Shown: positions 604 through 26,225 of the stretch, piece by piece
How the letters are laid out: each line of letters starts with the position of its first letter
How positions within the stretch are numbered: the stretch's first letter is position 1
Made by a program: the position numbers and the translations under genes
The notes under the pieces: model-generated
Database searches by the model: none
Told to the model about the DNA's origin: nothing
The model's input: the letters and a program-made list of their open reading frames with translations, nothing else
Source of the DNA: a virus
Virus genome (UHGV): UHGV-0100673
Length of the DNA: 29,596 nt
Reading direction: 5' to 3' (one strand)

Positions 604-1143
604 ATGAAGAAAGTTTTTCTTTGCGCCATCTTAGCTTCCTTAAGCTATCCGGCTATCGCCTCATCATTGCAGGATCAACTCTCTGCTGTCGCAGAAGCGG
701 AACAGCAAGGTAAAAATGAAGAGCAAAGGCAGCATGACGAATGGGTCGCGGAGCGCAACAGGGAAATCCAGCAAGAGAAGCAACGTCGCGCAAACGCCCA
801 GGCCGCCGCTAACAAAAGAGCGACAACGGCAGCGGCAAATAAGAAAGCTCGTCAGGATAAACTGGACGCCGAAGCCTCTGCGGACAAAAAACGCGATCAA
901 AGTTATCAAGATGAGCTACGCAGCTTAGAGATTCAGAAACAAAAACTGGCGCTGGCGAAAGAAGAAGCCCGCGTTAAGCGAGAAAACGAATTTATCGATC
1001 AGGAACTGAAGCACAAAGCTGCGCAAACCGATGTGGTGCAATCTGAAGCTGACGCAAACAGGAATATGACTGAGGGCGGTCGAGATCTGATGAAAAGCGT
1101 GGGCAAAGCAGAAGAGAACAAATCGGACAGCTGGTTTAATTAA
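604..1143 (+). CDS. yfgI: Secreted Lys/Glu/Ala/Gln-rich coiled-coil protein (YfgI-like)
   Basis: Signal peptide MKKVFLCAILASLSYPAIASS; strong SD AGGAGG 6 nt upstream; highly charged repetitive body; 179 aa and position after yfgH match the E. coli yfgH-yfgI arrangement from memory. Confidence 0.65.
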   Translation: MKKVFLCAILASLSYPAIASSLQDQLSAVAEAEQQGKNEEQRQHDEWVAERNREIQQEKQRRANAQAAANKRATTAAANKKARQDKLDAEASADKKRDQSYQDELRSLEIQKQKLALAKEEARVKRENEFIDQELKHKAAQTDVVQSEADANRNMTEGGRDLMKSVGKAEENKSDSWFN

Positions 1144-1181
1144 TCGATGTAAGTAACTTCAAGCCTATAATTCTTGAAGAT

Positions 1182-1214
1182 AAAAAACCCTCTGTAGTAA
1201 CAGAGGGTTTTGTT
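1182..1214. terminator. Bidirectional rho-independent terminator
   Basis: Perfect 7-bp stem CCCTCTG / CAGAGGG with 6-nt loop, flanked by an A-run on the 5' side and TTTTGTT on the 3' side, so it can terminate yfgI (+) and the convergent minus-strand transcripts. Confidence 0.7.
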
Positions 1215-1237
1215 CATTCATAGTGCAGGGATCAAAA

Positions 1238-1258
1238 TCATTCCCACTCAATTATTTA
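1238..1258 (-). other. guaA 3'-terminal remnant / candidate prophage attachment-site junction
   Basis: Minus strand reads ATA ATT GAG TGG GAA TGA (I-I-E-W-E-stop) with an in-frame stop just upstream, so only the terminal codons of a gene ending IEWE are present. GuaA ending in IEWE and lying convergent to yfgI are recalled, not verified. Confidence 0.4.
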
Positions 1259-1362
1259 CAGCACTCGTAACCAATTGACTGAAAACAAGTTTATGAAACG
1301 ATAAATTCTGCATACCGTTTTATATACCGTCACCGGGAAACAGTACCATGAAAAATACCATG

Positions 1363-1794
1363 CTACCTGGTCAGTTCATCGTACTGCCTTTCGCATACCC
1401 TTCCGGCTTCAGCTGCCCGGTCAGCGTATTCTGCCAGTTGTCGGTTTCGTTCGAGAGATTTTTCGAACACGTCGGTAAGCAAAATTCCGGTGTCTGCGGC
1501 TGACGACCCAGCGCCGACAGTGGCGTTATACTGCCTGAGCTGCTCACGGATGGCAACGAGCTGCTGCTGCAGCCGGCCAGCGCGAGCGGCAGCATCAAGA
1601 GCATCATTGCGCGCCTGGTCGATCCTCTGCTGCGCCTCTCGTTCATTGGTTGCTTTCTCCTGTTCGTCATGTTGACGGGCTTTATCATCTTCTGCTTTGC
1701 GGTCTGCCTTCGCCTGCGCATACCCGGCGTCGTACTGCCTGTCACCGTGAATATTCCAGGCTACAACGCCGCCGGCTACCAGAGCAGCAAGCAT
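1363..1794 (-). CDS. Rz-like i-spanin
   Basis: N-terminal hydrophobic segment LAALVAGGVVAW then charged Ala/Gln/Arg-rich coiled-coil body; last gene of the lysis cassette; contains an embedded lipoprotein ORF in another frame. Confidence 0.75.
   Translation of the reverse strand: MLAALVAGGVVAWNIHGDRQYDAGYAQAKADRKAEDDKARQHDEQEKATNEREAQQRIDQARNDALDAAARAGRLQQQLVAIREQLRQYNATVGAGSSAADTGILLTDVFEKSLERNRQLAEYADRAAEAGRVCERQYDELTR
1371..1607 (-). CDS. Rz1-like o-spanin (embedded in Rz, alternate frame)
   Basis: Internal start MMLLMLPLALAGCSSSS gives a lipoprotein signal with lipobox LAGC, followed by a Pro/Ser-rich short mature part; entirely within the Rz ORF in a different frame. Start at 1607 or 1604. 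Confidence 0.7.
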   Translation of the reverse strand: MMLLMLPLALAGCSSSSLPSVSSSGSITPLSALGRQPQTPEFCLPTCSKNLSNETDNWQNTLTGQLKPEGYAKGSTMN

Positions 1795-1841
1795 CTACAC
1801 GATAAGCAACTGTTTCCAGTATGCTTTCACGAATGCCGTGA

Positions 1842-2471
1842 TCATGATGCCAGCACCTTCTTGGCCGACAGGTAACGCACACGGCGATCGTCGATGCCAT
1901 TCTGGCCGCCATTGATGATCTGCGTGACGCGCATCAGGTCGTCGGTGTACTTCAGGCATCCATATTTCACGAAGTACCACGCCGCGCTCCGCGCTGCATA
2001 CTCGTCCTGCGCCAGCAGTTCCGGCTGCTTAACCAGGTCCACCTTCATACCGTTGCCGCAGTCACGATAGTTGTTCAGCCCGGTGATCTGGATAAGCCCT
2101 CGTCCGCGGTAAAACCAGCCGTCGGTCGGCCCGTTATTCCCCATGCGTTTGCTGTACACCAGATTGGCAATGGCCCGCTGCCTCTCCAGTGGCAACGATG
2201 GTTCACCCTGCCGGCGCCCGAGGGAATTAGCCTGGCCCTGCGTCAGTCGCCCGGCACGGACGAAACCAGCCAGCCCCGCCACGCTGTAATTGAAGCTCTC
2301 AACGAGCTGGGTAAAGCCAGTGCTTTCATGCCCGGCCTGGGCAATAAACATCGCCTGATCCAGCGGCTTGATGATGCCAAACTCTTTCATGGCCGCCACG
2401 ATGTGCGGATGCCAGCGTGTGGCCAGCGCCAGGCTAACGCCGGCAGCTTTCTGAAACTCGTTAATGTCCAT
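1842..2471 (-). CDS. Endolysin, glycoside hydrolase family 19 (chitinase-like lysozyme)
   Basis: Motifs AQAGHESTGF and YRGRGLIQITGLNNY resemble the GH19 catalytic region; directly downstream of the holin-like genes with an overlapping start. Confidence 0.8.
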   Translation of the reverse strand: MDINEFQKAAGVSLALATRWHPHIVAAMKEFGIIKPLDQAMFIAQAGHESTGFTQLVESFNYSVAGLAGFVRAGRLTQGQANSLGRRQGEPSLPLERQRAIANLVYSKRMGNNGPTDGWFYRGRGLIQITGLNNYRDCGNGMKVDLVKQPELLAQDEYAARSAAWYFVKYGCLKYTDDLMRVTQIINGGQNGIDDRRVRYLSAKKVLAS

Positions 2472-2766
2472 GTTGCGACCTCGATATCTTGAAGATTTGC
2501 ACGACGTTGCCGCGCGTCTTCAGCACCGCGGCGAACATCACAGCATTGATAACGACCTCAGAAAGATCTGCGGTCATGGGGAAGTGGTACAGGTATGAGT
2601 ACGCGGTGCGCAGCGGGATGCTGGCCGCCGCCACGATGAGGAAATAGGCTATCCACCCGCCCCAGCGGCGGTGGCGCGATCCGTTGCGCTGGAAGAACAT
2701 CACCCTCAGCGCTATCCCGCCGCAGATGAGGGCATTAGCGATCAGCAGCAGATCATGGCCTGTCAT
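2461..2766 (-). CDS. Holin/antiholin-like small membrane protein
   Basis: 101 aa with at least two hydrophobic helices; overlaps the upstream membrane protein and the downstream endolysin, i.e. a coupled lysis cassette. Confidence 0.55.
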   Translation of the reverse strand: MTGHDLLLIANALICGGIALRVMFFQRNGSRHRRWGGWIAYFLIVAAASIPLRTAYSYLYHFPMTADLSEVVINAVMFAAVLKTRGNVVQIFKISRSQHGH

Positions 2767-3157
2767 CGTCTTTTCCTCCCGGGATTAAATCGCGCGGATT
2801 GTCAGAGCGGTGATACAGCCATATCCCGACCCGCACCGCGACAATTGCCGCAACGAACGCGCCGGCGGAGTAGACAATGCCCCGCTCGAACGAGTCCTGT
2901 GTGATGGTGGGGATCATGCTGGCAACGCCGATAAGGATTGATGCTGTGGGTTTGTAGAAGAGAAGACCGCAGAGAAAGCTGAGTAGCGCCAGGAGAACGC
3001 GGCGCTTGGCCGGATACTCAACAGCAGAGGTAACAAAAATTACCGCCCCGGCCAGCGATCCCAGCGCCACTTCAGGAGGTACGCCGGCGATAACTGCCGC
3101 CAGCGCACCGTAGCTAAGCCCATGATTTATTGTATCAGCGGTTAGCGATGCAGACAT
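2753..3157 (-). CDS. Holin (multi-pass membrane protein)
   Basis: Three or four predicted TM segments and a charged C-terminal tail (DNPRDLIPGGKDDDRP); first gene of the lysis cassette. Start placed at ATG 3157 (GGTGG 5 nt upstream) rather than GTG 3166. Confidence 0.6.
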   Translation of the reverse strand: MSASLTADTINHGLSYGALAAVIAGVPPEVALGSLAGAVIFVTSAVEYPAKRRVLLALLSFLCGLLFYKPTASILIGVASMIPTITQDSFERGIVYSAGAFVAAIVAVRVGIWLYHRSDNPRDLIPGGKDDDRP

Positions 3158-3276
3158 GATGACCACCGTTTACTATGCATGATGAACCTCCTTAGTTTGG
3201 TAAGTTCATCATACACAACAAACCATATTTGAATAAACGGTAACAGTAATTTATGCCAGTATAAACCTTGCCACAA

Positions 3277-3510
3277 TTATTCAAATAACACTTTTGCGGC
3301 AGTGGCTTTTTCTATTGCCTCATTCAGAATTGTTTGGTTTTCTGTTAACTCGCTGGCACTAAAGTATCTGATGAGAAGCTGATAATTGAGAACGCTGTCG
3401 CCAATAAAATCCATTGCCTGCGCTGTCAGATTCGTATCCATCCCCAGCAAATTCATTAAGGACAATACAATCTGTTCTTTTTCTGTCAGTTGATTCATTT
3501 CGCCTGGCAT
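3277..3510 (-). CDS. Hypothetical small acidic protein
   Basis: 77-aa ORF 18 nt downstream of the tailspike gene on the same strand; no recognisable motif. Confidence 0.4.
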   Translation of the reverse strand: MPGEMNQLTEKEQIVLSLMNLLGMDTNLTAQAMDFIGDSVLNYQLLIRYFSASELTENQTILNEAIEKATAAKVLFE

Positions 3511-3528
3511 GATTGATTTCCTGTTGTA

Positions 3529-5418
3529 TTAGTTAGTTGAAGAGTGGCCGCATAGTTTGGCATTTAGTCCGACATTACATTCGGACAAAGCCACGCCGCT
3601 GATGTTGATGATTCGAACGTACGCCTGCGTTTTCGCGCTGTTGATATAAACCTGAACAGCCACAACAGGCATTGACCCTGCGTATCCTACTGGCGTCACG
3701 TCCAGTGTGTAGTTCGTCCAGTCAGCAATAGAAATGCCAAACAGTGTCGTCACATCTTTTTCAGAATACCCGCCGGCACTTATTGGCCCCCACGCGACAG
3801 CTGAGGATGTGGTATGGAATTTCACACCACCGTCGAGGTTTACCCTGTTTTTTGCTTTTCCGTTGCCCGTACCCAAATACAGCCGCCTGGAATATGTGTC
3901 ACCAAAGTCATCAACACCCCACGGCGTTACAGATGCTGAAACCTGATGAATATATGTCCAGCTACCGTTCTGCGTAGTTTTTCTGCGTACTATAGGGGCA
4001 TTCCCTGAAGCAAAAATAGAATAGGTTGTAGCATCTGTAATGCTAAGCCCCGTTACTGAATCAAAAATTCTGACACCACAATTCCACTTATCGACTCCGT
4101 TACGTAGACGCTGAACGCGAATGCCATCAGCCCCAGATGATGTGGATAGATCTCCAACCCCAGCGATGTAACAGCCAACATAAGTACCGTTACCCACGAT
4201 GCCATCAATATTACAATCAATCTCAACCCCGTAAACCTCGTCTCCGGGTTGCAGATTATGGGCGTTAGTTAACAGGTTCATTGCCCACAATTTCTGCCGT
4301 TCACAGTTAAACGATTCTATCGCAGCCATCAGAGCGACGAACGGCTCATAATTCGGCCCGCTGGACAGCGTGTCATGGACAGCCATTTCAACAGCCATAG
4401 TCTGGTGCTTTACCGACGTTCCATCGATATTCACAGCGCTATATTGTTTTGTTCTGAACGTAGTGCCTGATATTTTGTGGTTCGGGTGCGTTGTTAGTCT
4501 CGGCAGAAAATTGGTATTCGTGACTGTAATTCCCGGGGAAAAAATAACAGTACACGGCTCCGAACGATCAAATTCTATCGCACTGGTTAGAGTGACATTG
4601 GTATCAAAAGTGATGTTACTGGACTCATCAAAAGCAGCCTGCACAGCATCCTGATCGGACAGCCCCTGATTTTTGTAATAACTGATCGCAACAAGAGGTT
4701 TATTACCCAACTTTGCGACCAGGGAAGTCCCTTCTTCTGATGCCAACTCAATCATCACATCAGCCGCAGAACCTGACTCAGGCAATACCGCTATCGGATT
4801 ACCGGTATCGTTGAATGCCAGTATTTTTTTCCTGCGACCTGAGATGCCAGGAAGCATTCCTACTTCTGACTCAGGAACCCTCAGCGTCCGCTTAAAGTTA
4901 TTGTCTGAATGAGAAATGGCGCCATGATAGAGATTGTCAGCATACCCCTTCGTGGCCGCATCCTGCGCCTGTGACGGGTCACGCAAGTTACGAATGCGGT
5001 TGTTGAGTGCGTCGTAATAGTTAGCGATGAACGACGGCTTGCGCAGCGCCAGGCGGAGAAAGCTGAAACACTGCTGGATAAGCATGGTCAACTTGTCGAA
5101 CGCATCCTCATGCACCTCTGCGAAAAATTTACCCTGGTTACGGAGGTCAGTATCCTGGGTAACTGGCAGGTCACGCGAGATAGAGATTTGCCATCCGTTG
5201 GCCAGCGGTGACATCAGCACTACATTCCCACCAGAATAAGTACCAGCCCCAGTAACTGAGTAATCGGTATCCAGAGTCAGCACCGTAATATTTTCGTTAA
5301 GGTCAGCGACCTGGACGGTGAGATCTGACTTCTTGAAGATGCGGAATGTATACGGAAATGATGTCGTAACGCCGTTACCTGTGTATTCGTTGTGGTCAAC
5401 TTCGGTTGAGACCGTCAT
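3529..5418 (-). CDS. Tailspike / tail fibre protein
   Basis: 629 aa; N-terminal pattern EYTGNGVTTSFPYTF...VLTLDTDY resembles the conserved particle-binding domain of T7 gp17-type fibres and podovirus tailspikes; remainder is Gly/Thr/Asn/Ser-rich, consistent with a beta-helix receptor-binding body. Confidence 0.75.
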   Translation of the reverse strand: MTVSTEVDHNEYTGNGVTTSFPYTFRIFKKSDLTVQVADLNENITVLTLDTDYSVTGAGTYSGGNVVLMSPLANGWQISISRDLPVTQDTDLRNQGKFFAEVHEDAFDKLTMLIQQCFSFLRLALRKPSFIANYYDALNNRIRNLRDPSQAQDAATKGYADNLYHGAISHSDNNFKRTLRVPESEVGMLPGISGRRKKILAFNDTGNPIAVLPESGSAADVMIELASEEGTSLVAKLGNKPLVAISYYKNQGLSDQDAVQAAFDESSNITFDTNVTLTSAIEFDRSEPCTVIFSPGITVTNTNFLPRLTTHPNHKISGTTFRTKQYSAVNIDGTSVKHQTMAVEMAVHDTLSSGPNYEPFVALMAAIESFNCERQKLWAMNLLTNAHNLQPGDEVYGVEIDCNIDGIVGNGTYVGCYIAGVGDLSTSSGADGIRVQRLRNGVDKWNCGVRIFDSVTGLSITDATTYSIFASGNAPIVRRKTTQNGSWTYIHQVSASVTPWGVDDFGDTYSRRLYLGTGNGKAKNRVNLDGGVKFHTTSSAVAWGPISAGGYSEKDVTTLFGISIADWTNYTLDVTPVGYAGSMPVVAVQVYINSAKTQAYVRIINISGVALSECNVGLNAKLCGHSSTN

Positions 5419-5521
5419 GTTAAATCTCCAGATAGTCGCAGCACCCGTTGCGCCGCATATCCGGTTATTTTATTACCTGAAAAACCACATATGGATAGAT
5501 AGACTGTGAATACGAACAGAT

Positions 5522-5538
5522 ATTACCTTTCAGGTAAT
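5522..5538. promoter_or_regulatory. Palindromic operator-like site ATTACC-TTTCA-GGTAAT
   Basis: Perfect 6-bp inverted arms with 5-bp spacer, read directly; same core as four other sites in the window. Confidence 0.5.
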
Positions 5539-5574
5539 TTGCAAAACGTGCTGGATAGCAAACAAATTATTTGA

Positions 5575-5594
5575 TACTGTATAAATATACAGTT
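5575..5594. promoter_or_regulatory. LexA (SOS) box
   Basis: TACTGTATAAATATACAGTT contains CTGT-N8-ACAG with an AT-rich spacer, a very close match to the LexA consensus, about 20 nt upstream of the ATG at 5614. Confidence 0.75.
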
Positions 5595-5613
5595 ATTGCA
5601 TGGAGAAGATAAG

Positions 5614-5871
5614 ATGCAGCAGTATCACTATCCACTGGAAGACGGATTTACCGAAAGGATTCACACGCCGGGAGGCGTCAGGTCACTGGTGGAGGGATCG
5701 CACTTGATGAAATTACTCCGGGATCTCGATAAGGATGGATTTAATGTCGATGGCCCACTTGCCGAACTGACTGCACTGATTAACTACGTCACCAGCTCAC
5801 AGATGTCTATGCAGGATCTGCAAACACATCTCGACTATTGTGCCGAACAATTACGAAAACAAACCAGATAA
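5614..5871 (+). CDS. Small SOS-controlled antirepressor-like protein (homologous to the C-terminal domain of the adjacent BRO-N protein)
   Basis: ATG 5614 with SD GGAG 6 nt upstream (the ORF track's 5596 start is TTG). GVRSLVEGSHLMKLLRDLDKDGFNVDGPLAELTALINYV...DLQTHLDY aligns by eye with SGVLGLTENSLLMNLLNQLQEDGHDVSGAAAELTTMFCYI...DIQTHAEY at the C-terminus of the 6187..6882 product. Confidence 0.65.
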   Translation: MQQYHYPLEDGFTERIHTPGGVRSLVEGSHLMKLLRDLDKDGFNVDGPLAELTALINYVTSSQMSMQDLQTHLDYCAEQLRKQTR

Positions 5872-5902
5872 GGTTTGCAATTACCAAATGGAGTGCTTAT
5901 AT

Positions 5903-5919
5903 TTACCTTTGCGGTAAAT
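5903..5919. promoter_or_regulatory. Palindromic operator-like site variant TTTACC-TTTGC-GGTAAA
   Basis: Same TTACC-N5-GGTAA core as the other four sites. Confidence 0.4.
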
Positions 5920-6009
5920 TTACATCGCACTCCTCTTGTGCCATAGTAATCGGGCACTGGCAAAATCCAGTGCCGGGATTGGCGTCCCGGATTACTAAAA
6001 GGTGCATTC

Positions 6010-6029
6010 ACCGCGCAAGCGGTTTTTTT
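6010..6029 (+). terminator. Short intrinsic terminator-like hairpin
   Basis: ACCGC-GCAA-GCGGT stem-loop followed by a 7-T run; downstream of the small gene and of a structured element at 5945..5996. Confidence 0.4.
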
Positions 6030-6186
6030 ATACGTATAGCACGGCCACATTCGTATTATGGTGGGCTGTGTGGGGGCACCGAAAGGTGCGCCGGGTCCTT
6101 TTAGCCGGTTACGCCAACCCTGCACAGCTCACCACCAACCGATTGGCGTCGGTAGTGGTGATTAACCAGACTAAAAGGTAACCACT

Positions 6187-6882
6187 ATGACAGCTACAAA
6201 AAGCACGTCCATTTTTTCTTTCGAATCCCAAGCCGATATACGAGTAATCGTCATTAATGGTGAGCCATGGTTTATCGCTTCAGATGTTTGTCGGGCTATA
6301 GGCATAGCAAACCATCGAGATGCTGTTCGAAAACTTGATGATGATGAGAAGGGCGTCGCTTCAACCGACACCCCTGGCGGTGAGCAAGAATCGATCATCA
6401 TCTCCGAGTCAGGCCTCTACACACTGATCCTCCGCTGCCGCGACGCAGTGACACCAGGCACTATCCCCTACCGCTTTCGTAAATGGGTTACAGGTGAGGT
6501 TCTTCCTCAGATCCGCTGCACCGGAAGTTACATTAAAAACTCGCTCCCGCAGGAAGAACGCATAAAGATGGTTGCCGACCAGGTAGCCAACGCCACAGCA
6601 TCAGCAGTGATGCAGGCGATGAAGATAGAGAACAAAACCTACAGTGCCCCACTGAAGCCCGGCTACCGCAGCCTGATTCATTCGCCGTCTGGTGTTCTCG
6701 GCCTGACGGAGAACTCACTGCTGATGAATCTGCTGAACCAGTTACAGGAAGACGGGCACGACGTATCGGGCGCGGCGGCGGAGCTGACCACCATGTTCTG
6801 CTACATCGTCGGTGTGAGCAAATGCCTGCGTGATATCCAGACGCACGCGGAGTACATCAACGACAAAGCAGGGTTCTTCTGA
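6187..6882 (+). CDS. BRO-N domain phage antirepressor
   Basis: N-terminal region ...IRVIVINGEPWFIASDVCRAIGI...ESGLYTLILRC...FRKWVTGEVLPQIR matches the BRO-N domain pattern; C-terminal about 60 aa homologous to the small upstream protein. Confidence 0.75.
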   Translation: MTATKSTSIFSFESQADIRVIVINGEPWFIASDVCRAIGIANHRDAVRKLDDDEKGVASTDTPGGEQESIIISESGLYTLILRCRDAVTPGTIPYRFRKWVTGEVLPQIRCTGSYIKNSLPQEERIKMVADQVANATASAVMQAMKIENKTYSAPLKPGYRSLIHSPSGVLGLTENSLLMNLLNQLQEDGHDVSGAAAELTTMFCYIVGVSKCLRDIQTHAEYINDKAGFF

Positions 6883-6953
6883 CGGGCGGCGGCACAGGGA
6901 TGTGCCTTTAAATAATTCTGTACAGATTGCAGACTGGGGGTGAATAGCGTACT

Positions 6954-6970
6954 ATTACCTTAAAGGTAAA
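6954..6970. promoter_or_regulatory. Palindromic operator-like site ATTACC-TTAAA-GGTAAA
   Basis: TTACC-N5-GGTAA core about 45 nt upstream of the ATG at 7012. Confidence 0.45.
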
Positions 6971-7011
6971 CCTGTTTTTATTTTATACCTGTAACTTACC
7001 GGAGATTAAAG

Positions 7012-7338
7012 ATGACAAAACTTGGATTCGTGATGAGAGGTCCGGTAAGAAGCGGAACTCATGCAAAGCGTAGCAAGAGTCGTATTTTTACTGGTAAGGT
7101 TGTAGCACGTAAATCAGCTATTGGCTCGTTCCATAGTGAAAATGCGGCATTGCGCCATATTTTTATCAGCACAAAGCCAAGAGCATCCGCTGATGTGCAT
7201 ACAATGACTATTCCTATCACAAAGAATATAAAGCGGATAAAAAAGCTCTCATCTGCAGAATCAAAAGAGATATCTTTCCGCCAGCTTAACTCATTAGAAA
7301 CGCATATGAAGGAAGAGGAATTCGATGTTTTTGAGTGA
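7012..7338 (+). CDS. Hypothetical basic protein, first gene of a two-gene overlapping module (candidate antitoxin/partner)
   Basis: SD GGAG 7 nt upstream of ATG; 108 aa, Lys/Arg-rich with acidic C-terminal tail EEEFDVFE; 3' end overlaps the next gene by 14 nt. Confidence 0.5.
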   Translation: MTKLGFVMRGPVRSGTHAKRSKSRIFTGKVVARKSAIGSFHSENAALRHIFISTKPRASADVHTMTIPITKNIKRIKKLSSAESKEISFRQLNSLETHMKEEEFDVFE

Positions 7339-7837
7339 GTATAGCGGGAAGGTTATACCTACTGGTGAGTTTAAAACTGATGACTTTCTGATTTCGCTAA
7401 AAGATGCTTTTAAACAACACTGGCGTCATGGTCATCATCCTGATCTGGGAAAAGATACTCTTTTTGAAAGACCAGACGAAGTATTAGGTTTCCATCTCAG
7501 AAAGGTTCATGTCAATATTGGTGAATATGCATCATATTCATACTCATGTACTGAACAGTGTTGGGATGAGTGGTCATATGGATTGATTGATGAACAAGGA
7601 AATTACAGGCCAAAACCAACCAGTAACGCATATCTCATATATGCAGTCAATGAAATAAGAGATGCAGCCTTACTAGCTTATTGGGACCCGCCCGCACACA
7701 CCAAAGCTAACGCAAAAGTTTGGATGGATTCCGTATTGAATTTCACAAAATTATTTCATGAACGAACGAATACAGCTCCACTTAGTAGAAATGTTTATCC
7801 GTGGGATTATTCGTACAAATCCAAAAAGCCTGCATAG
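7325..7837 (+). CDS. Candidate YafO-family toxin-like protein (tentative)
   Basis: Start ATG 7325 lies inside the upstream gene with SD AGGAAGAGGA ahead of it. Blocks LGKDTLFE...HLRKVHV and AYLIYAVNEIRDAALLAYWDPPAH resemble, from memory, the conserved FGRDALYD...VAHIHL and HLVYCQG...AWLLIAILKPEPH blocks of E. coli YafO. No search was run. Confidence 0.45.
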   Translation: MFLSEYSGKVIPTGEFKTDDFLISLKDAFKQHWRHGHHPDLGKDTLFERPDEVLGFHLRKVHVNIGEYASYSYSCTEQCWDEWSYGLIDEQGNYRPKPTSNAYLIYAVNEIRDAALLAYWDPPAHTKANAKVWMDSVLNFTKLFHERTNTAPLSRNVYPWDYSYKSKKPA

Positions 7838-7918
7838 TAGTTTTTTATGGACGAAACAAAAGTCAGTGCTACACTCATTGACGCCACATTGAAGTGGCTT
7901 ATAGATGGAAATTTCACA

Positions 7919-8080
7919 ATGAAAAAAGCATTTGCTGCACTGTTCGTTTTGTTGTCTCTGGTAGCTTCAACTCAGGCCTTTGCCGGTCGTTGTCAGCACG
8001 ACAGCGATACTGCCGCTGACGGCTCCCGCTGCGGTGGGCGTTCTGCGGATTCCCGCCCGGGTGGCGGTGGCATTCGTTAA
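7919..8080 (+). CDS. Small secreted Cys-containing peptide
   Basis: Internal start MKKAFAALFVLLSLVASTQAFA is a canonical signal peptide; mature part about 31 aa, Gly/Ser/Asp/Arg-rich with two Cys. The longer ORF from 7847 adds 24 non-signal residues. Confidence 0.45.
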   Translation: MKKAFAALFVLLSLVASTQAFAGRCQHDSDTAADGSRCGGRSADSRPGGGGIR

Positions 8081-8086
8081 AAACAA

Positions 8087-8102
8087 GGCCGCGAAAGCGG
8101 CC
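8087..8102. terminator. GC hairpin, likely intrinsic terminator for the minus-strand operon
   Basis: GGCCGC-GAAA-GCGGCC perfect stem; on the minus strand it is followed by TTGTTTTT, immediately after the stop of the 8112..8408 gene. Confidence 0.6.
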
Positions 8103-8111
8103 TGTGACATG

Positions 8112-8408
8112 TCACGTTCCTTTTCTGAATGATAGCCGTTCGAAAAATGATGACATTCCACCGCAGACAATAGCAAAGATGATCCCACCAAAGAAGAGAA
8201 GGCCAGCCTGCCACCACTCCCACCGCCATACATCCACAGCGCCAATCATACCAACAATCGCTCCAACAAACGGAATATAACTCACGACAAAAGCAACGGG
8301 AGCTGCAATTACCCAGTGCACCCCCCACCATGATTCAAGCCCAGCCATAATTGCTGCCAACTGAAAAAGACCAACGACGATATAAACAATGAATCCTATA
8401 GCTTGCAT
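8112..8408 (-). CDS. Small multi-pass inner-membrane protein
   Basis: 98 aa, almost entirely hydrophobic helices with Trp-rich loops; SD AGGTGA upstream; last gene of the minus-strand structural operon. Confidence 0.55.
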   Translation of the reverse strand: MQAIGFIVYIVVGLFQLAAIMAGLESWWGVHWVIAAPVAFVVSYIPFVGAIVGMIGAVDVWRWEWWQAGLLFFGGIIFAIVCGGMSSFFERLSFRKGT

Positions 8409-8603
8409 GTAGTCACCTATTTACCCATTAAAAATCAGAGGCCTCCCCTCAATAAGGCTTGCAACAAGAACTACTCCCTGCACAACAAAGATGAACCAGC
8501 AAATAGCTTGAGTCTGAGGGTTAAGAAAATATTTGTAGCGGTCAATAAATAACAATCCACCAGAAATTATCACACTCAAAATAATTAAAAACACAACACT
8601 TCC

Positions 8604-11078
8604 TTATTGCGGAGTGACATCCTGAGGTCGCCACCAGTATGTCTGGTTAAACTCTTTCTTCGAACGTTGCTCCATTTTACGCAAATAGCCTGGTGAAAAA
8701 TACTCCTGCATCTGGTTAAAGATCATGTGATCGAGAGCCGCCTTCAAGTACCAGAGATTCGCACCAGGCATCAAACCTTTCCCCAGCTTCACCAGATCAC
8801 CACCAGTCTGCTCACTCTTCCCTTCCACAGCATTTAACGGTATGCCCTGAGCAATCTTCACTACGTCATCAACCAGACCAGCTACCGGGCCAAGCATCGA
8901 CGCCAGCGCGCCGCTTCCGTACCTAGTGTGATCTGACAATAAAAAGTCACCATAAAGGCCAAGACCACCACCTTTCAGTAGAGCACCAAGCCAGAATTTT
9001 GCGGCATCTTCTCCTGTCATCTCTCGAGGATTACGACCAGACGCAAGGTCGTTAAGTTGTTGCGACAAAGCGCCAAGAATGGTCGTACTGGCAATAAACG
9101 TCGCAATATATGCCGCACGCCCACCAGCAGACGGCATACCCATAGCGCGTGACCAGTGACGCATAACAACCGAGATAGGGAACGATTTAAACAGGAAAAC
9201 ACTTCTCGTTAATTCACCTTTCCATGTTCCACGCTGAATACCAGAACCGGTTATCAGTTGCTCACGTGCTCCCGGTGTAATAACAGCCATATCAACTTCT
9301 TCAGTTACGGCACCGAGCAGTTTACGCATTGCCTCAAATTTCACGCGTTCAGGCTCACCAAGATGTTTAACTGCTGAATCAGGGATACGCATAATGCTTT
9401 CCGGTGTCAGCATCGTATTATTACCGTTACCCCAGTCCTCCTGTTGCGCCAGCTTCCATACGCTCCAGTCTGTGTCAGTAATCCCTTTGCTTTTCAGGAT
9501 ACGAAAATCAGAGTCATCGAGGCTACGAAGGTCTGGTGTTCGTGACACTACTTCTCCCAGGCTTCCCATCATGGTTACGCCATAGGCGCGCTTGTGCGCA
9601 TCTGACCATGCTGTAAGCCCACTGGCACGCATTACCGCCGTTGCCGCCCAACGAGACACTGACGGCCCCATATTATCCATCGCCCAGCGGTTAACGCTGC
9701 CAAGTAGAGATTCCATCGCCAGACCAGCGCGGCGCGCCCGCGCAAGTTCTGTACGGTTCGTTGGGTCCATAGCTTCAAGCTGGTTGCGGAATAACTGGTT
9801 CATTGGAAGGTTGGTAACCTTCGCAGACAGATACATGGTTCCAAGATCAGAGAACGATGACAGCAACGCGGATCCGAGTCTGCTGGCAACCAGCCAGTTG
9901 CGGATATTGTCAGACCATCGCGCGATGTGCGGATTCGCTACAGGCTGTGTCTTTCCGGAAATAAAGTTGTACAGATTCTCTGTGTTGTTCGCCAGCCGCT
10001 CGACTTTACCGGTTTTACTCGGGTTAGCGGTTGCCGTTTCTGCCTTCACCTGATCAAGAAGAGAGCGGAAAACATGATCGGGGTTTGGGCCATATGTTTC
10101 CACCAGTGCAATATCTTTACTGATACCTTCCAGGTGACCGACCATGATTTCCCATAGAGAGCGATCGCCATAAAGTTGCTGATATTGCAGATAGGAATCT
10201 GCATCTTTGAAATGTATCTGTCGTGATGCATTACCACGGTTAGCACGTGCGCCGGAAATTCGCATTCCGGTATCAGTAAGCTTATTCAGCCCACCAGTAG
10301 CGATCGTGTTATAAGCCTCTCCAAGAAATGCAGACAACTCGGCATCGTTCATCAGTTGTCCATCGGCTCGGATATAATATTTGCGATCCAGCTTACCTAT
10401 AACATCGCTAACCCACTTATCCTTTGATACCGCCCCAACCTTTTCCATAGAATGATGTTGAGGGATCCCCCAGTTTTCGAGATAGCCAATGTCCCCACCA
10501 GCATCATTAAACCGGCGGCGCAGCAGCTCTGTAACTTCTCTCCACGCCTTAGCACCTTTTCTTGCTTTAGCATTGCCAGTATTTTGCCCCCGCATTTCAT
10601 ATACCAGGTCACGTACGCCCGCTTCATCTTCAAACAGACCAAAAAAGCGAGGATCAACTGCTTCGAATGCCTCCTGCAATTGACTCAATGCATAATCACG
10701 GGTGGCTTTTGTTCTGGATTCAACAGAGAGGAAATTAGATTTACCGTCTGCATTAAAAGCTATAGTACGGTTAAGAGCGCCAAGTTTCCCATCAGCCCCT
10801 TGATAGCTATTGATAAATTTATCCAATCTCTGACGCGCGGCTATAGTGAGAGCCACACGACGTTTCTTTAATGCCGCTTCTCGCTGTAATTCTTCAGATG
10901 CCAATTGTGCTGCTCGATATAGCCGCTCTGATTCGGAAAGTTGTCGCCACGACATCGGGTCATCACGAGCAATGGAGCGCATATTTCGATAAATGCGGTC
11001 TTCAATGTTCTGTATTTCTCGCGCCGTTAACGTGCGCTGCGCCGCCTGCTGGACCGCTTGTATACATTCCTGTCTCAT
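8604..11078 (-). CDS. Internal virion / ejection protein (gp16-like position)
   Basis: 824-aa ORF in the run of large proteins between the tail tube genes and the end of the structural operon; call is positional. Confidence 0.55.
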   Translation of the reverse strand: MRQECIQAVQQAAQRTLTAREIQNIEDRIYRNMRSIARDDPMSWRQLSESERLYRAAQLASEELQREAALKKRRVALTIAARQRLDKFINSYQGADGKLGALNRTIAFNADGKSNFLSVESRTKATRDYALSQLQEAFEAVDPRFFGLFEDEAGVRDLVYEMRGQNTGNAKARKGAKAWREVTELLRRRFNDAGGDIGYLENWGIPQHHSMEKVGAVSKDKWVSDVIGKLDRKYYIRADGQLMNDAELSAFLGEAYNTIATGGLNKLTDTGMRISGARANRGNASRQIHFKDADSYLQYQQLYGDRSLWEIMVGHLEGISKDIALVETYGPNPDHVFRSLLDQVKAETATANPSKTGKVERLANNTENLYNFISGKTQPVANPHIARWSDNIRNWLVASRLGSALLSSFSDLGTMYLSAKVTNLPMNQLFRNQLEAMDPTNRTELARARRAGLAMESLLGSVNRWAMDNMGPSVSRWAATAVMRASGLTAWSDAHKRAYGVTMMGSLGEVVSRTPDLRSLDDSDFRILKSKGITDTDWSVWKLAQQEDWGNGNNTMLTPESIMRIPDSAVKHLGEPERVKFEAMRKLLGAVTEEVDMAVITPGAREQLITGSGIQRGTWKGELTRSVFLFKSFPISVVMRHWSRAMGMPSAGGRAAYIATFIASTTILGALSQQLNDLASGRNPREMTGEDAAKFWLGALLKGGGLGLYGDFLLSDHTRYGSGALASMLGPVAGLVDDVVKIAQGIPLNAVEGKSEQTGGDLVKLGKGLMPGANLWYLKAALDHMIFNQMQEYFSPGYLRKMEQRSKKEFNQTYWWRPQDVTPQ

Positions 11079-11083
11079 TTAAT

Positions 11084-12886
11084 TTAACCTCTCAAGAAAC
11101 ACGCCACAGCGACATCAAACAGGCTGGAATCCTGTATTGCCTGCTCACTTTCCCTGTTCGCTTCATCCAGTACTTCACGCGCGCTGCGCGATTGTGGATT
11201 ACCATCATCATCCAGCACGGTGATTATCATGTCAGGTGATTCAAGCAGCGAGTCTTCAGCTATGCGCAGATCAATATCTCCTGCCTGATCTGACATCATT
11301 TTTTGTTCTGCCTGTTGCAATATTTTATCAGGCTCAAAAGGAGCTACTTCGTCTGGCGTCCTGACCTCTGCTGTTTTATAGAATGAAACAGCCTGAGCAT
11401 TAAGTTCACTTTCTGCCTGCTGTCTCCGAGCCAGTTCTGCTCGAGCTTCAAAAAACTGACCGCCAGGCTCGTGCGGTGCCAACGCGTTACGGGAAAATTC
11501 CAGGCGTTCTTGTGCCTGCCGGATTCGTTGATCAATATCGCGAAGTCTGGCCTGTTTATCTGATCGAGCACGAGACAAAGCTTTACCGCTACCGGTTGGC
11601 TCTTCTGCAAGAATTTGTGCACGCTGTTCAGTGAGATTTTCAATAATTCGTTGGCTATTAGCGATTTCCGACTGGTAAACCTGTCTATCGCCACGCGGCA
11701 AAAGCTGCGCGGCCTGTTCTTCAAGCAACCGATTTTCTATAGCGCGCGCCGTTACTCCATCATCTACAGATGACAGAGCCTCATTAACTGCCTGAGACAG
11801 CAGACTCTTGCGCCCAGGAATTTCACTGAAAGATGCAGACTCAACAATGCTGGCAACGTCTACAGGTCTCCCCTGGCTAACATCAGACATGGCTTTTCGC
11901 AGAGCCTGAATGTGAGAATTGCGCGAAAGCACGTTGATCGGCACGCCGGGAGCAATATCAATTTCAGCATGATGAGCGGCATTCGCCGCCAGTGCAGCAT
12001 CGACATCAACTGGTGAAAAATTTGGTGCGCTTGTAGACTCGCCGCGAGAGTTAATAAATCTGCCGACACCACCAAACGCCACTCCAAGAACAGCATCAAT
12101 AGCAATTGCCTGTCGATCCAACACATCATACTGATTAGCCATTTCGCTATAGCCACCATCACGAAGCGTTTTTGCAGTAAGCCCACGCTGTGCCATACCG
12201 AACGCAATATTTGTACCTGCGGCATAGGCAATATCTGGCGTTGCACGTACTGCTGTTGCTGCGGCGCGTCGCACTGAACTTTCACCCGTCCGCGCAAGCT
12301 GAGCCGCCACACCTTCCGCCAGCGCACCACCAGCACGTAACCCGAGGCTCATAGGGATCAGTGTTCCGGCACCAGCAGTAATACCCTGCACTAATCCCGC
12401 TTCCTGCGCCGTCCTGAAATCAACACCCTGTGCTGTCAGCCGTTCAAACTCAGAAAAACCCTGTAGCGAAGTTACCGCCGCAGCACCTCCGACCGGACCA
12501 CCGAGCGTTGTACCGACAACAGCCTGCCCGCCCATATCGAACAACCCATAAAGGACCTGCCCGGCGGTTCCGGTTGTCGCGGCATCAGGCGTCAGCCGCT
12601 TAACCTGCTGCTCTGCTAGTTTTCTCTGCTCGGCAATGTATGAAACTGAAGTGTCATTGAGCGAGGTGTTTTCGTTAACAAACTGAGCAATCGGGGATAC
12701 GATTTTATCCATCCCTGCCCAGAGCAACTGATCTGGCTTTGCCACCAGCCCGGAGTACAAACCAGACAATGCCGCTCCTACAGCATTGTCGAAAAAACCA
12801 ACATCGCTGTTAAAGCCAACTGGATTTGATGCTGCTTCGTCAAGCTGCTGATTCTGGTTTACTGGATTAAGGCCAAAGTAACTCAT
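11084..12886 (-). CDS. Internal virion protein, Ala/Gly-rich
   Basis: 600 aa; start overlaps the stop of the upstream gene (ATGA-type coupling); long Gly/Ala-rich segments and a charged coiled-coil C-terminal part. Confidence 0.55.
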   Translation of the reverse strand: MSYFGLNPVNQNQQLDEAASNPVGFNSDVGFFDNAVGAALSGLYSGLVAKPDQLLWAGMDKIVSPIAQFVNENTSLNDTSVSYIAEQRKLAEQQVKRLTPDAATTGTAGQVLYGLFDMGGQAVVGTTLGGPVGGAAAVTSLQGFSEFERLTAQGVDFRTAQEAGLVQGITAGAGTLIPMSLGLRAGGALAEGVAAQLARTGESSVRRAAATAVRATPDIAYAAGTNIAFGMAQRGLTAKTLRDGGYSEMANQYDVLDRQAIAIDAVLGVAFGGVGRFINSRGESTSAPNFSPVDVDAALAANAAHHAEIDIAPGVPINVLSRNSHIQALRKAMSDVSQGRPVDVASIVESASFSEIPGRKSLLSQAVNEALSSVDDGVTARAIENRLLEEQAAQLLPRGDRQVYQSEIANSQRIIENLTEQRAQILAEEPTGSGKALSRARSDKQARLRDIDQRIRQAQERLEFSRNALAPHEPGGQFFEARAELARRQQAESELNAQAVSFYKTAEVRTPDEVAPFEPDKILQQAEQKMMSDQAGDIDLRIAEDSLLESPDMIITVLDDDGNPQSRSAREVLDEANRESEQAIQDSSLFDVAVACFLRG

Positions 12887-15396
12887 TGCGGAATATCTCC
12901 GGAGAATCTCTGACGCTTCTGTGTCAGATCAAGAACAACGGGAGAACCATCATCTTTTAGCAGATAACCAGTACCAAGTTTCACCAGGTACTGACTATCG
13001 CCGTAACTTTGCAAACCATACTGACCAGGCGGTGTTTTTATCCCTGTGCCAACAACTTGTTCATTCCAAGCCTGATTAACCTGCTTATCGAATTGCTCTG
13101 CAGACATTCCCCACGGCAAAAGAACATTCCCCATTCCGTTATAGTCATGCACGCCACCTGTAGCTACGTTAACAGCCTGTTTCCAGATATCATTGTCAAT
13201 TTCGCCTGATACCACGCCTTTTTTCGCCATCACACCAGCGTAATAGTCCTTTGCGATCTCGTATGCCATTGATGCCCCCTGAGCATCACCAGCAAATGCA
13301 TCCTTCACCATGTCAGAAAACTCAAGGCGAAGATCAGCATCTTTAGGCATCGGAATACCTTTCGCGTCATCAGTACCTTTACGAGCCGCCGCGCCAGCAA
13401 GAATTGTCTGCGCAGCGGTTTCTGGAGACACGGAAACATCAGGATTAAACCAGTTTTTTTCTGCCAAAATACCACCTGGCTTATCCATCAGTATCCCGGC
13501 AACGGCAGCAGATGGAGCGTTGGCACTGATCTGCTGTAGTGCTGACATATACACCTGCCCACCACCAGTGCTCTGCCTGATGGTATCGAGATATGCTGCC
13601 TGTTGGGAAACGGGCGCATCACGAAAGAAAACACCGATCTGATTGGCCTCGTCTTTGGAAAAGAACGTCAGTGGAGTGCCATATGACTTAGCAAGGTCAC
13701 TGACCTGAGCAGCACGCAAGGCAACGCTCTGTCCAAAGTTATCCTTATTGCTCATGTCGATAGGCTTTGCCTGTCCGGCGGCAAGAGAGAACTGTACAGG
13801 ATCAGCCTGTCGCTGCTTTATCACCTGACTTGCAGCCGACACAACGTTGTCATAAAGAGCGGCTCGTGCCGCATAACCCTCCCCTGTCTCACCAGTATCC
13901 GGGCGTAATTGCTCAACATATGCTGTAATGCTGCTTGTCGGCATGTTGCGGAAAGAGCCTATATACTGTCCGGCGATTTGCGTATTTCTGAACTCGGTAT
14001 ATCGCAGGTTTCCTTCTCTTACTCCATAAGCTGCAATAAAATCAGCCTCACCAGGTGGGTTAGGAAATTCAACGCCACGCATATACGCAGCTGTCGCATC
14101 GCGAACCTGGCTGTCAATCATCGTTTTATATTCAGCCTGCTGCTGCCGACGCAGTTGATCCGCCTGTCGCATAAAACTTGCCTGCGCCTCAGGAGATGCC
14201 GCATCGAATGCTGCATTACCGGTATAGCGTTTGGTGTTGGTTGGAATTGTTGATAAACCAAGTGCTGCACTGACACCAGCAGTTAACTGCTGATCACTGT
14301 ATGGCTGGCTACCGTTCTCATGATGGATAATGGCTGCACAAAGCGCCTTCAGGGTATCAGGATTAGATGCATCGAGAGGCTCATCAGCAGAAACGCCAAG
14401 TTGTTCGCACACTGCTTTGATATACGACATAGTGTCATTTTTATCAGCAGGCGGTGCCCAGCGATTAATTATCTCGCTGACGGTATCAATACCCTGCCTC
14501 TGATACGACATCAGGTTCCGCCCTAATGCACGAATCCCGTGTTCAGGTGTTTCGAATTTAGCAAATCGACCATCATCACCGGTCTGGCCTACCCACGGAT
14601 TAGTTTTGCTGTATTCGAGATTTCCTGGGTTATTGTTGCGTATGCCACGGGCACGCTCGGAAGAGTCACTATCTGCTACAGCACGGCGAGCTCCAGCAGC
14701 AGTATCACTTAACTCGCCATTACTTTGGATGAATGCGGTCGCATTGTTTGCCGACCACTGGGACAATGCAGCATCAGCAACCTTCTCTTTAAACTCGATT
14801 TTCTTGGCCTGGATTTGCTCGTTGCTCCAGCCATGTGCAACACCGTACTCCTCAATTTGCTGGAAAGTTTGCTTGTTAGCCAATACGTATGCGGCGTTGT
14901 CGCCATACAATGCTGCGGCATTTTTACCATTGTTCAGCAGTGTCGCCTGAAACTGGCCTTCTTCGTAGGCATTAATTTGCCCTATCTCGTGTCGCCCGGC
15001 CTGCGTAGTGAACTGAATGCGCTGCTGCTGCGCCTGCTGCATGAAAGCATTACGAGCCTGTTCATCCGGCAGCGACATAGCAAGTTGTTCGACCTGAGCA
15101 TCAAACTGCTGCGTATACTCATGGCCTTTTCCAATAGCATTTTTCCCTTTCAGGTTAAGCAATCCTGTTTCAGGATTATTCAGCAGATCGCTGCTTATCT
15201 GACTGAGGTTAAGAGATGCCTCCTGAGCCAGAGCGATATTGGCACGCTGTTTTGCCTGCCCCAAAACATCAATTGCCTCTGTCCCTGCCCGAACAAAAGC
15301 ATCACCAATACCTTGCTGAGAAAACGTCTGCAAGCCTGCTGACTGAACTCCACGACTCTCAACCTGACGTCCGGATACTGTTGGTACGACTGGCAT
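12883..15396 (-). CDS. Internal virion protein (gp15-like position)
   Basis: Start placed at internal ATG 15396, which overlaps the upstream stop by 1 nt and has SD GGAGG; the ORF-track start at 15471 would overlap the upstream gene by 75 nt. Contains a segment RNNNPGNLEY...IINRWAPP of unknown function. Confidence 0.55.
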   Translation of the reverse strand: MPVVPTVSGRQVESRGVQSAGLQTFSQQGIGDAFVRAGTEAIDVLGQAKQRANIALAQEASLNLSQISSDLLNNPETGLLNLKGKNAIGKGHEYTQQFDAQVEQLAMSLPDEQARNAFMQQAQQQRIQFTTQAGRHEIGQINAYEEGQFQATLLNNGKNAAALYGDNAAYVLANKQTFQQIEEYGVAHGWSNEQIQAKKIEFKEKVADAALSQWSANNATAFIQSNGELSDTAAGARRAVADSDSSERARGIRNNNPGNLEYSKTNPWVGQTGDDGRFAKFETPEHGIRALGRNLMSYQRQGIDTVSEIINRWAPPADKNDTMSYIKAVCEQLGVSADEPLDASNPDTLKALCAAIIHHENGSQPYSDQQLTAGVSAALGLSTIPTNTKRYTGNAAFDAASPEAQASFMRQADQLRRQQQAEYKTMIDSQVRDATAAYMRGVEFPNPPGEADFIAAYGVREGNLRYTEFRNTQIAGQYIGSFRNMPTSSITAYVEQLRPDTGETGEGYAARAALYDNVVSAASQVIKQRQADPVQFSLAAGQAKPIDMSNKDNFGQSVALRAAQVSDLAKSYGTPLTFFSKDEANQIGVFFRDAPVSQQAAYLDTIRQSTGGGQVYMSALQQISANAPSAAVAGILMDKPGGILAEKNWFNPDVSVSPETAAQTILAGAAARKGTDDAKGIPMPKDADLRLEFSDMVKDAFAGDAQGASMAYEIAKDYYAGVMAKKGVVSGEIDNDIWKQAVNVATGGVHDYNGMGNVLLPWGMSAEQFDKQVNQAWNEQVVGTGIKTPPGQYGLQSYGDSQYLVKLGTGYLLKDDGSPVVLDLTQKRQRFSGDIPQ

Positions 15397-15941
15397 TATA
15401 ATCCTCCGGGTAATCTGGTTCCTGCTGCTGCCCCGATTGGCGCAGGAGTGCTTTGAGTAAACGGACTCCACGTCCCACCAAACATCTGGTACGCACCGTA
15501 TGCCTTCAGAGGCGCAGTGAGTAATGTTGTTGCTGCTCCCACATTCCCCTGTTTACGGGCTGAACTGGCTTCTGCTTTATAGTTGGCAGCCTGAACCTGA
15601 TAACCGTAAGCCTCGCGTTGCGCGTTATTCACCGTCGTCAGCGAATCAAGAGCGCCAAACTGGGCAGTGTCGCCAAATATATCCAGCGCGTTACCTGTAG
15701 ATAAATCAGCGCCGGTAGCCCCCATTGTCGCCGCCTGTGTACCAAGCCGCTGTCGGGTCTCTCTGCGTCGTTGCTCAGCTTCAGCGTTACCTCTGTTTAT
15801 TGCATCATTTGCCTGAGCTGTGGCTATATCTGCGTTCGCTTCTGCAACCTTCGAGGCATACTTTCCCTGTTGGTACTGGGTGTATGCCTGAATGCCACTC
15901 ATGGCGAGCATTGCGCCACCAGCAATAACCGGATCGCACAT
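15396..15941 (-). CDS. Internal virion protein (gp14-like position)
   Basis: 181 aa, Ala/Gln/Thr-rich, translationally coupled to both neighbours. Confidence 0.5.
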   Translation of the reverse strand: MCDPVIAGGAMLAMSGIQAYTQYQQGKYASKVAEANADIATAQANDAINRGNAEAEQRRRETRQRLGTQAATMGATGADLSTGNALDIFGDTAQFGALDSLTTVNNAQREAYGYQVQAANYKAEASSARKQGNVGAATTLLTAPLKAYGAYQMFGGTWSPFTQSTPAPIGAAAGTRLPGGL

Positions 15942-16405
15942 TATTTTCTCTCCATGTGAAATCTGTGGAAATTAAGACCAAGAGCACCATAAGGCGCGGC
16001 TTCTTCAAGCCTGAATCCAAGCCAGTGCAGCCATGCTTTGGCAACATGGTTTCGCTCGTCGACGTAGTTTTCCAGGCGCGGATAAACTGCCAGCATCTGC
16101 TGCAATACAGGTCGGCAGTGGCGAAGAAATGTCTTCTGATATTTTTCAATACGGCTGGCCCCGACCAGCCAGGGCGTACCATTGCCACCGATCATTGACG
16201 CCGGAGATACGCCAAACATGGTTACCAGTTCTCCGTTCGCGAACCCTGACCAGGCCATAGTCGCAGTGCGAAGACCAACACGCAGCGCATCTTCGGTAGT
16301 CATCAGCGATACCGCATACAGTTCGTCAATATCAGCCTGACGAACATCCGGCAAAATCATCTGAAGATGCTCTTCGGTAGCGGGAATAATTTGAACGTCG
16401 ATCAT
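15941..16405 (-). CDS. Internal virion protein (gp13-like position)
   Basis: 154-aa ORF with start overlapping the upstream stop; positional call. Confidence 0.45.
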   Translation of the reverse strand: MIDVQIIPATEEHLQMILPDVRQADIDELYAVSLMTTEDALRVGLRTATMAWSGFANGELVTMFGVSPASMIGGNGTPWLVGASRIEKYQKTFLRHCRPVLQQMLAVYPRLENYVDERNHVAKAWLHWLGFRLEEAAPYGALGLNFHRFHMERK

Positions 16406-25334: not shown

Positions 25335-26225
25335 ATGCTTGACTTCATCCGTGACATTTACTCCTCTTTCCGCCAAGCATCTCTTGAGCGGGTGAAAAGC
25401 CCGTTCCTTGGGGCATTTGTTTTTTCCTGGCTTTGCTTTAATTGGCAGATGTTAGCAATTCTATTTTTTAGTTCTAAGGATATTGAAAAGCGCCTTGCTA
25501 TTATTAATGGCTCTTTCGGCATCGTCAGCTTTTTAATTGCGCCAATATGCACTACAGCATTGATAGTTATCCTTTTACCGCAAATTAATAAATTGATTAC
25601 AATAATACAAGATAAACCTAACTCAGACACAATTGAAATGAGCCTTGCATCTAAAATAAAGATCGCCGAACTGCAGCAACTATTAGCAGAAAATGAAGCA
25701 AGAAAGAAACTTGCTGATAAAAAAGAAGAACGCTTCATTGAAGAGAATATTATTTCAATAAAAAAAGACCATGAAAAAGCAATAGATAACCTTAAAGACA
25801 AAGAAAGCAAAATCTCAAATCTCACGGACACAATAACTGAACTTCAGAGCAAACTGGTTAAAGCTGAGGCCACTCTCAAAGTTGAACAGGAGTCAAGATC
25901 CCAAGTGCAGAATGAATTGATTATTGAAAAAGAGAACAAGCGGAAATTAGAAGACAACATTCTGCACCTTAATTTAAGTTTAAAAAAAAACCAATCAGAA
26001 TTGGCCATTGCAAAAGAAGCCTATGATAATACCTTGATGGCTTATAATGAACTTAACACAACATTAAAAAAAGCAGAAAGCTCAATAATAAACTTCAATG
26101 CTAACTTTCCTTTTTTAACTGACATAAATAACAGCACCCCAAATACATACTTAAAAATAAATAAAAATGCATGGGATCATTTAGTTAGTTTAAATTTAAG
26201 TCTAAAGGAGAAAATACAAAAATAA
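25335..26225 (+). CDS. Membrane-anchored coiled-coil protein, AT-rich accessory (moron) gene of unknown function
   Basis: 296 aa; two N-terminal hydrophobic helices (FLGAFVFSWLCFNWQMLAILFF and IVSFLIAPICTTALIVILLP) then about 200 aa of Lys/Glu/Leu/Asn-rich heptad-like sequence; codons dominated by A/T with frequent ATA and some AGA; opposite strand to the flanking terminase and portal genes. Confidence 0.65.
   Translation: MLDFIRDIYSSFRQASLERVKSPFLGAFVFSWLCFNWQMLAILFFSSKDIEKRLAIINGSFGIVSFLIAPICTTALIVILLPQINKLITIIQDKPNSDTIEMSLASKIKIAELQQLLAENEARKKLADKKEERFIEENIISIKKDHEKAIDNLKDKESKISNLTDTITELQSKLVKAEATLKVEQESRSQVQNELIIEKENKRKLEDNILHLNLSLKKNQSELAIAKEAYDNTLMAYNELNTTLKKAESSIINFNANFPFLTDINNSTPNTYLKINKNAWDHLVSLNLSLKEKIQK

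Follow-up and report, generated by a model that had tools for sequence, protein, structure and literature searches.

The left attachment site of a phiV10/epsilon15-type prophage at the 3' end of guaA

Results

Host side of the junction

The window, i.e. the whole stretch of 29,596 nucleotides of virus genome UHGV-0100673 that was analysed here, begins with host genes and continues into phage genes. The features around the boundary are listed in Table 1. Over positions 1-1252 the window agrees at 100% identity with the unlysogenised E. coli H8, from yfgH through yfgI to the 3' end of guaA, and the homology with this uninterrupted locus breaks off exactly at 1252, after which phage DNA follows. 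This agrees with the initial annotation, which had proposed from the letters of the sequence a displaced guaA 3' end at a prophage junction and which is supported on all its main points. In H8, yfgH and yfgI are annotated, followed by guaA and guaB on the opposite strand, and thus the convergent arrangement of guaA and yfgI that had been assumed is seen in the uninterrupted locus. The guaA gene of H8 is 1578 nt long and ends with P-A-T-I-E-W-E-stop; window 1144-1252 corresponds to its native downstream flank together with the last four codons and the stop. When positions 1-1420 were searched by megablast, a match was found in 5,422 of 5,426 complete E. coli genomes, and in the large majority of the sampled rows it spans 1-1252 and then stops, with guaA lying beneath its end.

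A bidirectional terminator had been proposed after yfgI. The hairpin at this place folds on both strands, with -20.4 kcal/mol on the plus strand and -17.8 kcal/mol on the minus strand (z-scores -6.7 and -5.4); no shuffled sequence folded as well, and a consensus scan found it terminator-like on the minus strand. In H8 the identical hairpin is common to yfgI and guaA, while in the lysogen of the window it sits downstream of the phage lysis genes, not of guaA.

Table 1. Features of the guaA junction and its attachment sites
Feature	Position	Strand	Basis or sequence
yfgI (DUF5384), host gene left of the junction	604..1143	+	Pfam DUF5384, E=1e-60; annotated yfgI in matching E. coli records
Native bidirectional hairpin terminator common to yfgI and guaA	1184..1211		terminator scan, folding, identical in H8
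att core AATCATTCCCACTCAAT, 17 bp	1236..1252		same in attB, attP, attL and attR
guaA 3' remnant, codons I-E-W-E and stop	1238..1252	-	translation; identical to guaA end in H8 and PK6
Putative segment bounding strand exchange, TCCCACTCAAT, 11 bp	1242..1252		polymorphisms in two Klebsiella lysogens
Phage arm of attL (Rz-side arm of attP), non-coding	1253..1362		matches to phage attP regions
Direct repeats ATACCGTTTT (1312-1321) and ATACCGTCAC (1324-1333)	1312..1333	+	invariant in 7/7 aligned phages/prophages
Rz i-spanin gene (DUF2514), last phage gene	1363..1845	-	Pfam DUF2514, E=5e-38
Rz1 o-spanin, lipobox LALAGC, +1 frame within Rz	1371..1646	-	ORF listing; by analogy with epsilon15 and phiV10 Rz1 annotations
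attB	H8		...ggatcaaAATCATTCCCACTCAATggtagc...
attL	window		...ggatcaaAATCATTCCCACTCAATtatttaca...
attR	PK6		...agttgttAATCATTCCCACTCAATggtagc...
attP	phiV10		...agctgttAATCATTCCCACTCAATtatttacg...
Phage hairpin (outside the window)	L004 (PK6 attR, int-side arm) 7622-7650; L003 2408-2437; L005 1707-1739		

The displaced gene end and the att core

Read directly, the plus strand at 1231-1260 is atcaaaaTCATTCCCACTCAATtatttaca. On the minus strand, 1238-1258 is TAA, ATA ATT GAG TGG GAA TGA, which translates to a stop, I-I-E-W-E and a second stop (1238-1255 for I-I-E-W-E-stop), so the short string with a preceding in-frame stop is present as it had been described. Note that only I-E-W-E-stop is the guaA part of it; the first I (ATA, 1253-1255) and the TAA before it (1256-1258) are phage DNA and lie outside guaA. 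That IEWE is the C-terminus of GuaA, as the initial annotation had it, is borne out by the end of the H8 gene.

To define the att core, the window was compared with H8, with PK6 and, as a fourth source, with the phages epsilon15, phiV10 and SPN1S. It had been predicted to lie within 1215-1360, and it is found inside that interval, covering the last four guaA codons, the stop and 2 bp downstream. Its sequence is the exact reverse complement of a published core, attgagtgggaatgatt. For vB_EcoP_ZX5, this core and its attB, attL and attR were verified by PCR and Sanger sequencing, and the same attgagtgggaatgatt was stated to be the already proved attP of phiV10 and epsilon15 (PMC9782041). A literature search on guaA, prophage and yfgI found no further Enterobacteriaceae paper.

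Where in the core does the strand exchange take place? In E. coli, the 17 bp of phage and host are identical, so the displaced and the replacement end are indistinguishable by sequence. The cores of two Klebsiella pneumoniae lysogens are informative. At their attL, the remnant reads ggattacTCCCACTCAAT|tatttaca, corresponding to GAG TAA on the guaA strand, and it is contiguous with Klebsiella flanking genes; at their attR, guaA ends with cgttaatcatTCCCACTCAAT|cgttgctgg, corresponding to GAA TGA as in the phages. Thus, left of TCCCACTCAAT, attL has the host-type bases and attR those of the phage, and right of it the two are exchanged. Since the host and phage polymorphisms segregate in this way across the cores, both strand exchanges would fall within these 11 bp. 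The Klebsiella lysogens also show directly that the final codon and stop of their guaA come from the phage, confirming the replacement gene end that the initial annotation had supposed, with the host-type call resting on contiguity with host DNA. Two exact-pattern scans of genome contigs for the native unlysogenised Klebsiella guaA end (GAGTAA plus flank) gave no match.

Two other sequences were considered and rejected. A second copy of TTCCCACTCAAT, which holds the whole of the putative crossover segment, occurs at 18076-18090 with 13 of 15 bases matching. It sits inside the gene for an 823-aa tail protein (16405-18876, minus strand), is also present in PK6, has no arm repeats near it and is probably a chance resemblance. 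A possible inverted repeat around the epsilon15 core (TGTAAAT...ATTTACA), considered as a core-type site, is not kept in phiV10, SPN1S or PK6.

The phage arm

Positions 1253-1362 match 36 phage records, with 100% identity to a Klebsiella prophage record and 79-85% identity to epsilon15, phiV10, SPN1S, TL-2011b and ZX5. The matching stretch of epsilon15 and phiV10 lies between Rz and the integrase gene, and the core is likewise placed between these two genes in the attP regions of epsilon15, phiV10 and SPN1S. In the record of epsilon15 this interval, where the sequence is ...gtaaaTCATTCCCACTCAATtatttaca..., has annotated binding sites for integrase and for IHF as well as a rho-independent terminator. 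An alignment of seven attL/attP arms shows an invariant TATTTAC adjoining the core, then a variable middle, and an almost fully invariant block of 50 bases, TACCGTTTTATATACCGTCACCGG.AA.C.GTACCATGAAAAAT, right before the Rz stop.

In the int-side arm of epsilon15 and PK6 the 10-mer ATACCGTCAC appears again, and the epsilon15 record marks it as an integrase binding site; ATACCGT repeats are kept in both att arms. It is plausible, since the integrase has an arm-binding domain, that ATACCGTTTT and ATACCGTCAC are arm-type integrase binding sites.

Three records of Klebsiella pneumoniae prophages or phages are 98-100% identical to the Rz-side arm, whereas phiV10 and epsilon15 reach only 79-82%. While the arm is closest to Klebsiella, the structural genes are 98.5% identical to those of phiV10, which suggests that phages of Escherichia and Klebsiella have exchanged the lysis/att module in a mosaic manner.

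Lysis genes and prophage content

The initial annotation had named Rz as the last phage gene, ending at 1363; the DUF2514 gene has its stop codon beginning there. Codon 17 of this Rz is TAG (1795-1797, minus strand) versus TCG (Ser) in PK6, the sole difference in 483 nt. A stop at this codon would remove most of the N-terminal membrane anchor, and a restart at Met18 would leave the anchor too short, so the spanin may be inactive and efficient lysis defective, as judged from this codon.

The genes to the right of the junction encode Rz/Rz1, an endolysin of the GH19 family, two holins and a tailspike, as identified by Pfam. In the structural module (8600-24400) the identity is 98.5% with phiV10 and 98.4% with vB_EcoP_ZX5. 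From the phage-arm matches, the gene order and the identity of the structural module, the element is a phiV10/epsilon15-type prophage (genus Uetakevirus). The last base of the window still falls inside this element, near a DUF551 gene and the terminase genes, and its own attR, integrase and guaA would lie beyond 29596.

Several accessory genes were also observed. A phage-borne tRNA-Arg with anticodon tct is located at 25011-25087 (plus strand), and next to it is an ORF of 296 aa (25335-26225, plus strand), with the terminase and portal genes on the other strand. This ORF has no Pfam match and may be an accessory (moron) gene. An ORF of 170 aa (7325-7837, plus strand) has a weak Pfam match to a YafO-like toxin and is annotated YafO in relatives; it is overlapped by an upstream ORF of 108 aa without a family match. 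The two, spanning 7012-7837 on the plus strand, look like a toxin-antitoxin pair in an accessory region, and a BRO-N antirepressor-like gene (6187-6882) adjoins them.

The prophage of E. coli PK6

The prophage of E. coli PK6 differs from the window by one mismatch in 24,016 bases (99.996% identity), apart from two IS insertions in PK6, and PK6 is alone among the searched E. coli genomes in reaching at least 80% coverage of window 1150-9000. Its gene order is yfgI, Rz, structural genes, early genes, integrase, and then guaA-guaB. The repeat of the core beside an intact guaA that had been anticipated at the distal prophage end is seen here: the core AATCATTCCCACTCAAT stands at both prophage ends, and at attR a full-length guaA of 1578 nt adjoins the integrase gene. 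The integrase has the Pfam domains Arm-DNA-bind_3, Phage_int_M and Phage_integrase. A second core beside an integrase and an intact guaA was found in the two Klebsiella lysogens as well as in PK6.

The IS insertions of PK6 are ISKox3 and IS2, near the tailspike gene. Between 220 and 5382 there are 18 mismatches to PK6, including the nonsense change in Rz at 1796, and differences are seen in the visible host flank too; from 5581 onward the two prophages are virtually identical. As the host flank of the window matches H8 (100%) and differs from PK6, the same phage is found in different host backgrounds.

Discussion

What is the nature of the junction? The segment 1182-1362 is almost certainly the attL of a temperate podophage prophage of the phiV10/epsilon15 type (Uetakevirus), formed by site-specific recombination at the end of guaA. 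The recombinase would be a tyrosine integrase of the lambda/P4 type. The phage attP lies between Rz and int and carries the same 17 bp as the guaA target. Recombination would therefore give an intact guaA at attR, the distal junction next to int, whereas at attL a non-functional copy of the gene end would stay behind, flanked by the old host guaA/yfgI terminator and the Rz-side arm of the phage. A lambda-type reaction would make staggered cuts inside TCCCACTCAAT, whose exact positions we infer, and the integrase would bind the ATACCGT repeats. How attB, attP, attL and attR are related in sequence, and that the lysogens have an intact guaA, is directly observed.

One alternative is that the string I-E-W-E-stop arose by chance as a micro-ORF of an ordinary spacer between genes, without any integration. 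The string has just 15 nt, and a 13/15 match to it occurs even in the tail gene. However, the 1237 bases adjoining it match the native downstream flank of guaA at 100% identity, the phage-arm DNA begins at the very next base, and the same core stands at the other end of the prophage in PK6; the comparisons with H8 and PK6 already refute this explanation, to which we give practically no weight. It is only slightly less improbable that general recombination by RecA, or a deletion removing guaA, made the junction without an integrase. Nothing specific speaks for such an event, except that the window does not show guaA itself. Against it, the shared identity of 17 bp is too short for efficient RecA recombination, independent lysogens of E. 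coli and Klebsiella have the same breakpoints, the lysogens examined all carry a full-length guaA at attR, and integration at this core was demonstrated experimentally for vB_EcoP_ZX5 (PMC9782041).

A different question is whether the element is still mobile. The attL may be real while the prophage is a decayed remnant, truncated or otherwise unable to excise or to lyse the cell here. The nonsense codon in Rz, absent from the near-identical copy in PK6, would fit with decay, and the distal 10-12 kb with int and attR lies beyond the window. But the 28 kb within the window are collinear with PK6, with 1 mismatch in 24 kb and without IS elements or deletions, and the arm repeats of attL are intact. 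We therefore consider a remnant unlikely, though much less so than the two explanations above. Note that it bears on the present activity of the prophage and not on the nature of the junction.

The junction belongs to an att system already described. As in vB_EcoP_ZX5 (PMC9782041), the core corresponds to attgagtgggaatgatt, the target is the 3' end of E. coli guaA, and attP has the same position about 190 bp upstream of int. The structural genes of that phage are 98.4% identical to the window, but the tailspike and the accessory region differ, and its Rz-side arm matches only over 1268-1362 with 80.0% identity. The system also shares with phiV10 and epsilon15 the core, the order holin-endolysin-Rz/Rz1, attP and int, the conserved ATACCGT arm repeats and the hairpin terminator between core and int. 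In contrast to them, the window has a 629-aa tailspike that differs in its C-terminal part, and it lacks the serotype-conversion genes that epsilon15 has beside the lysis cassette; identity to the two phages in the Rz-side arm is no more than 79-82%.

A comparable case is the integration of phage 21 and e14 in the 3' end of icd, where attP duplicates the gene end, so that function is preserved while a displaced fragment remains at the second junction. The guaA system is similar in its phage-supplied gene end and in the displaced fragment at the opposite junction. The duplicated segment of icd is, however, about 165 bp and diverged, whereas that of guaA has only 15 coding nucleotides, which are identical in E. 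coli.

How widely is the site used? By blastn of window 1205-1362, at least 80% coverage, i.e. host flank plus phage arm, was obtained in 553 of 5,426 complete E. coli genomes (about 10%), a number which is approximate because a few matches begin at the core elsewhere in the genome (e.g. H89). The guaA 3' end is thus a common integration hotspot. Since the C-terminal IEWE of GuaA is conserved, the site is common to Escherichia, Salmonella and Klebsiella.

For annotation, which is the chief value of the result, the left prophage boundary is fixed exactly at 1252|1253, the IIEWE string is no gene, and an intact guaA is expected about 40 kb away from the junction. As the system described already has this core, this target, these arm repeats, this gene order and an integrase of this type, nothing here is surprising to a specialist, and the junction leaves the current understanding unchanged.

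There is a further question of what terminates guaA after integration. In the int-side arm of its attP, the phage carries a hairpin of its own, AAAAACCCTCTGTAAAAACAGAGGGTT, which is identical in 25 of 27 bases to the host hairpin (window 1182-1208) and has the same 8-bp stem, CCCTCTGT/ACAGAGGG. It folds at -15 to -16 kcal/mol and comes to lie about 45 nt past the guaA stop after integration. The local alignment of the two hairpins scores 44, against 15.8 +/- 2.2 for shuffled sequences, and 0 of 2000 shuffles reached 44, a statistic that overstates the significance as the two arms of a hairpin are not independent. In the 216 kb of sequence scanned, the exact stem pattern occurs only at guaA terminators and at the phage position. 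A coincidence in stem and flanks is unlikely; the resemblance suggests either that the attP arm came from a captured guaA flank or that there is selection for restoring the termination of guaA transcription. It is possible, though we would put it at somewhat less than an even chance, that the attP region is a captured guaA 3' flank and that the phage replaces the terminator of guaA as well as its last codons. At attR, guaA would run into the phage-borne hairpin, while at attL the lysis operon would run into the host hairpin (1211-1184). If this is true, the expression of guaBA would stay normal and int would be shielded from read-through, and the host hairpin would have been taken over as the terminator of the phage lysis operon.
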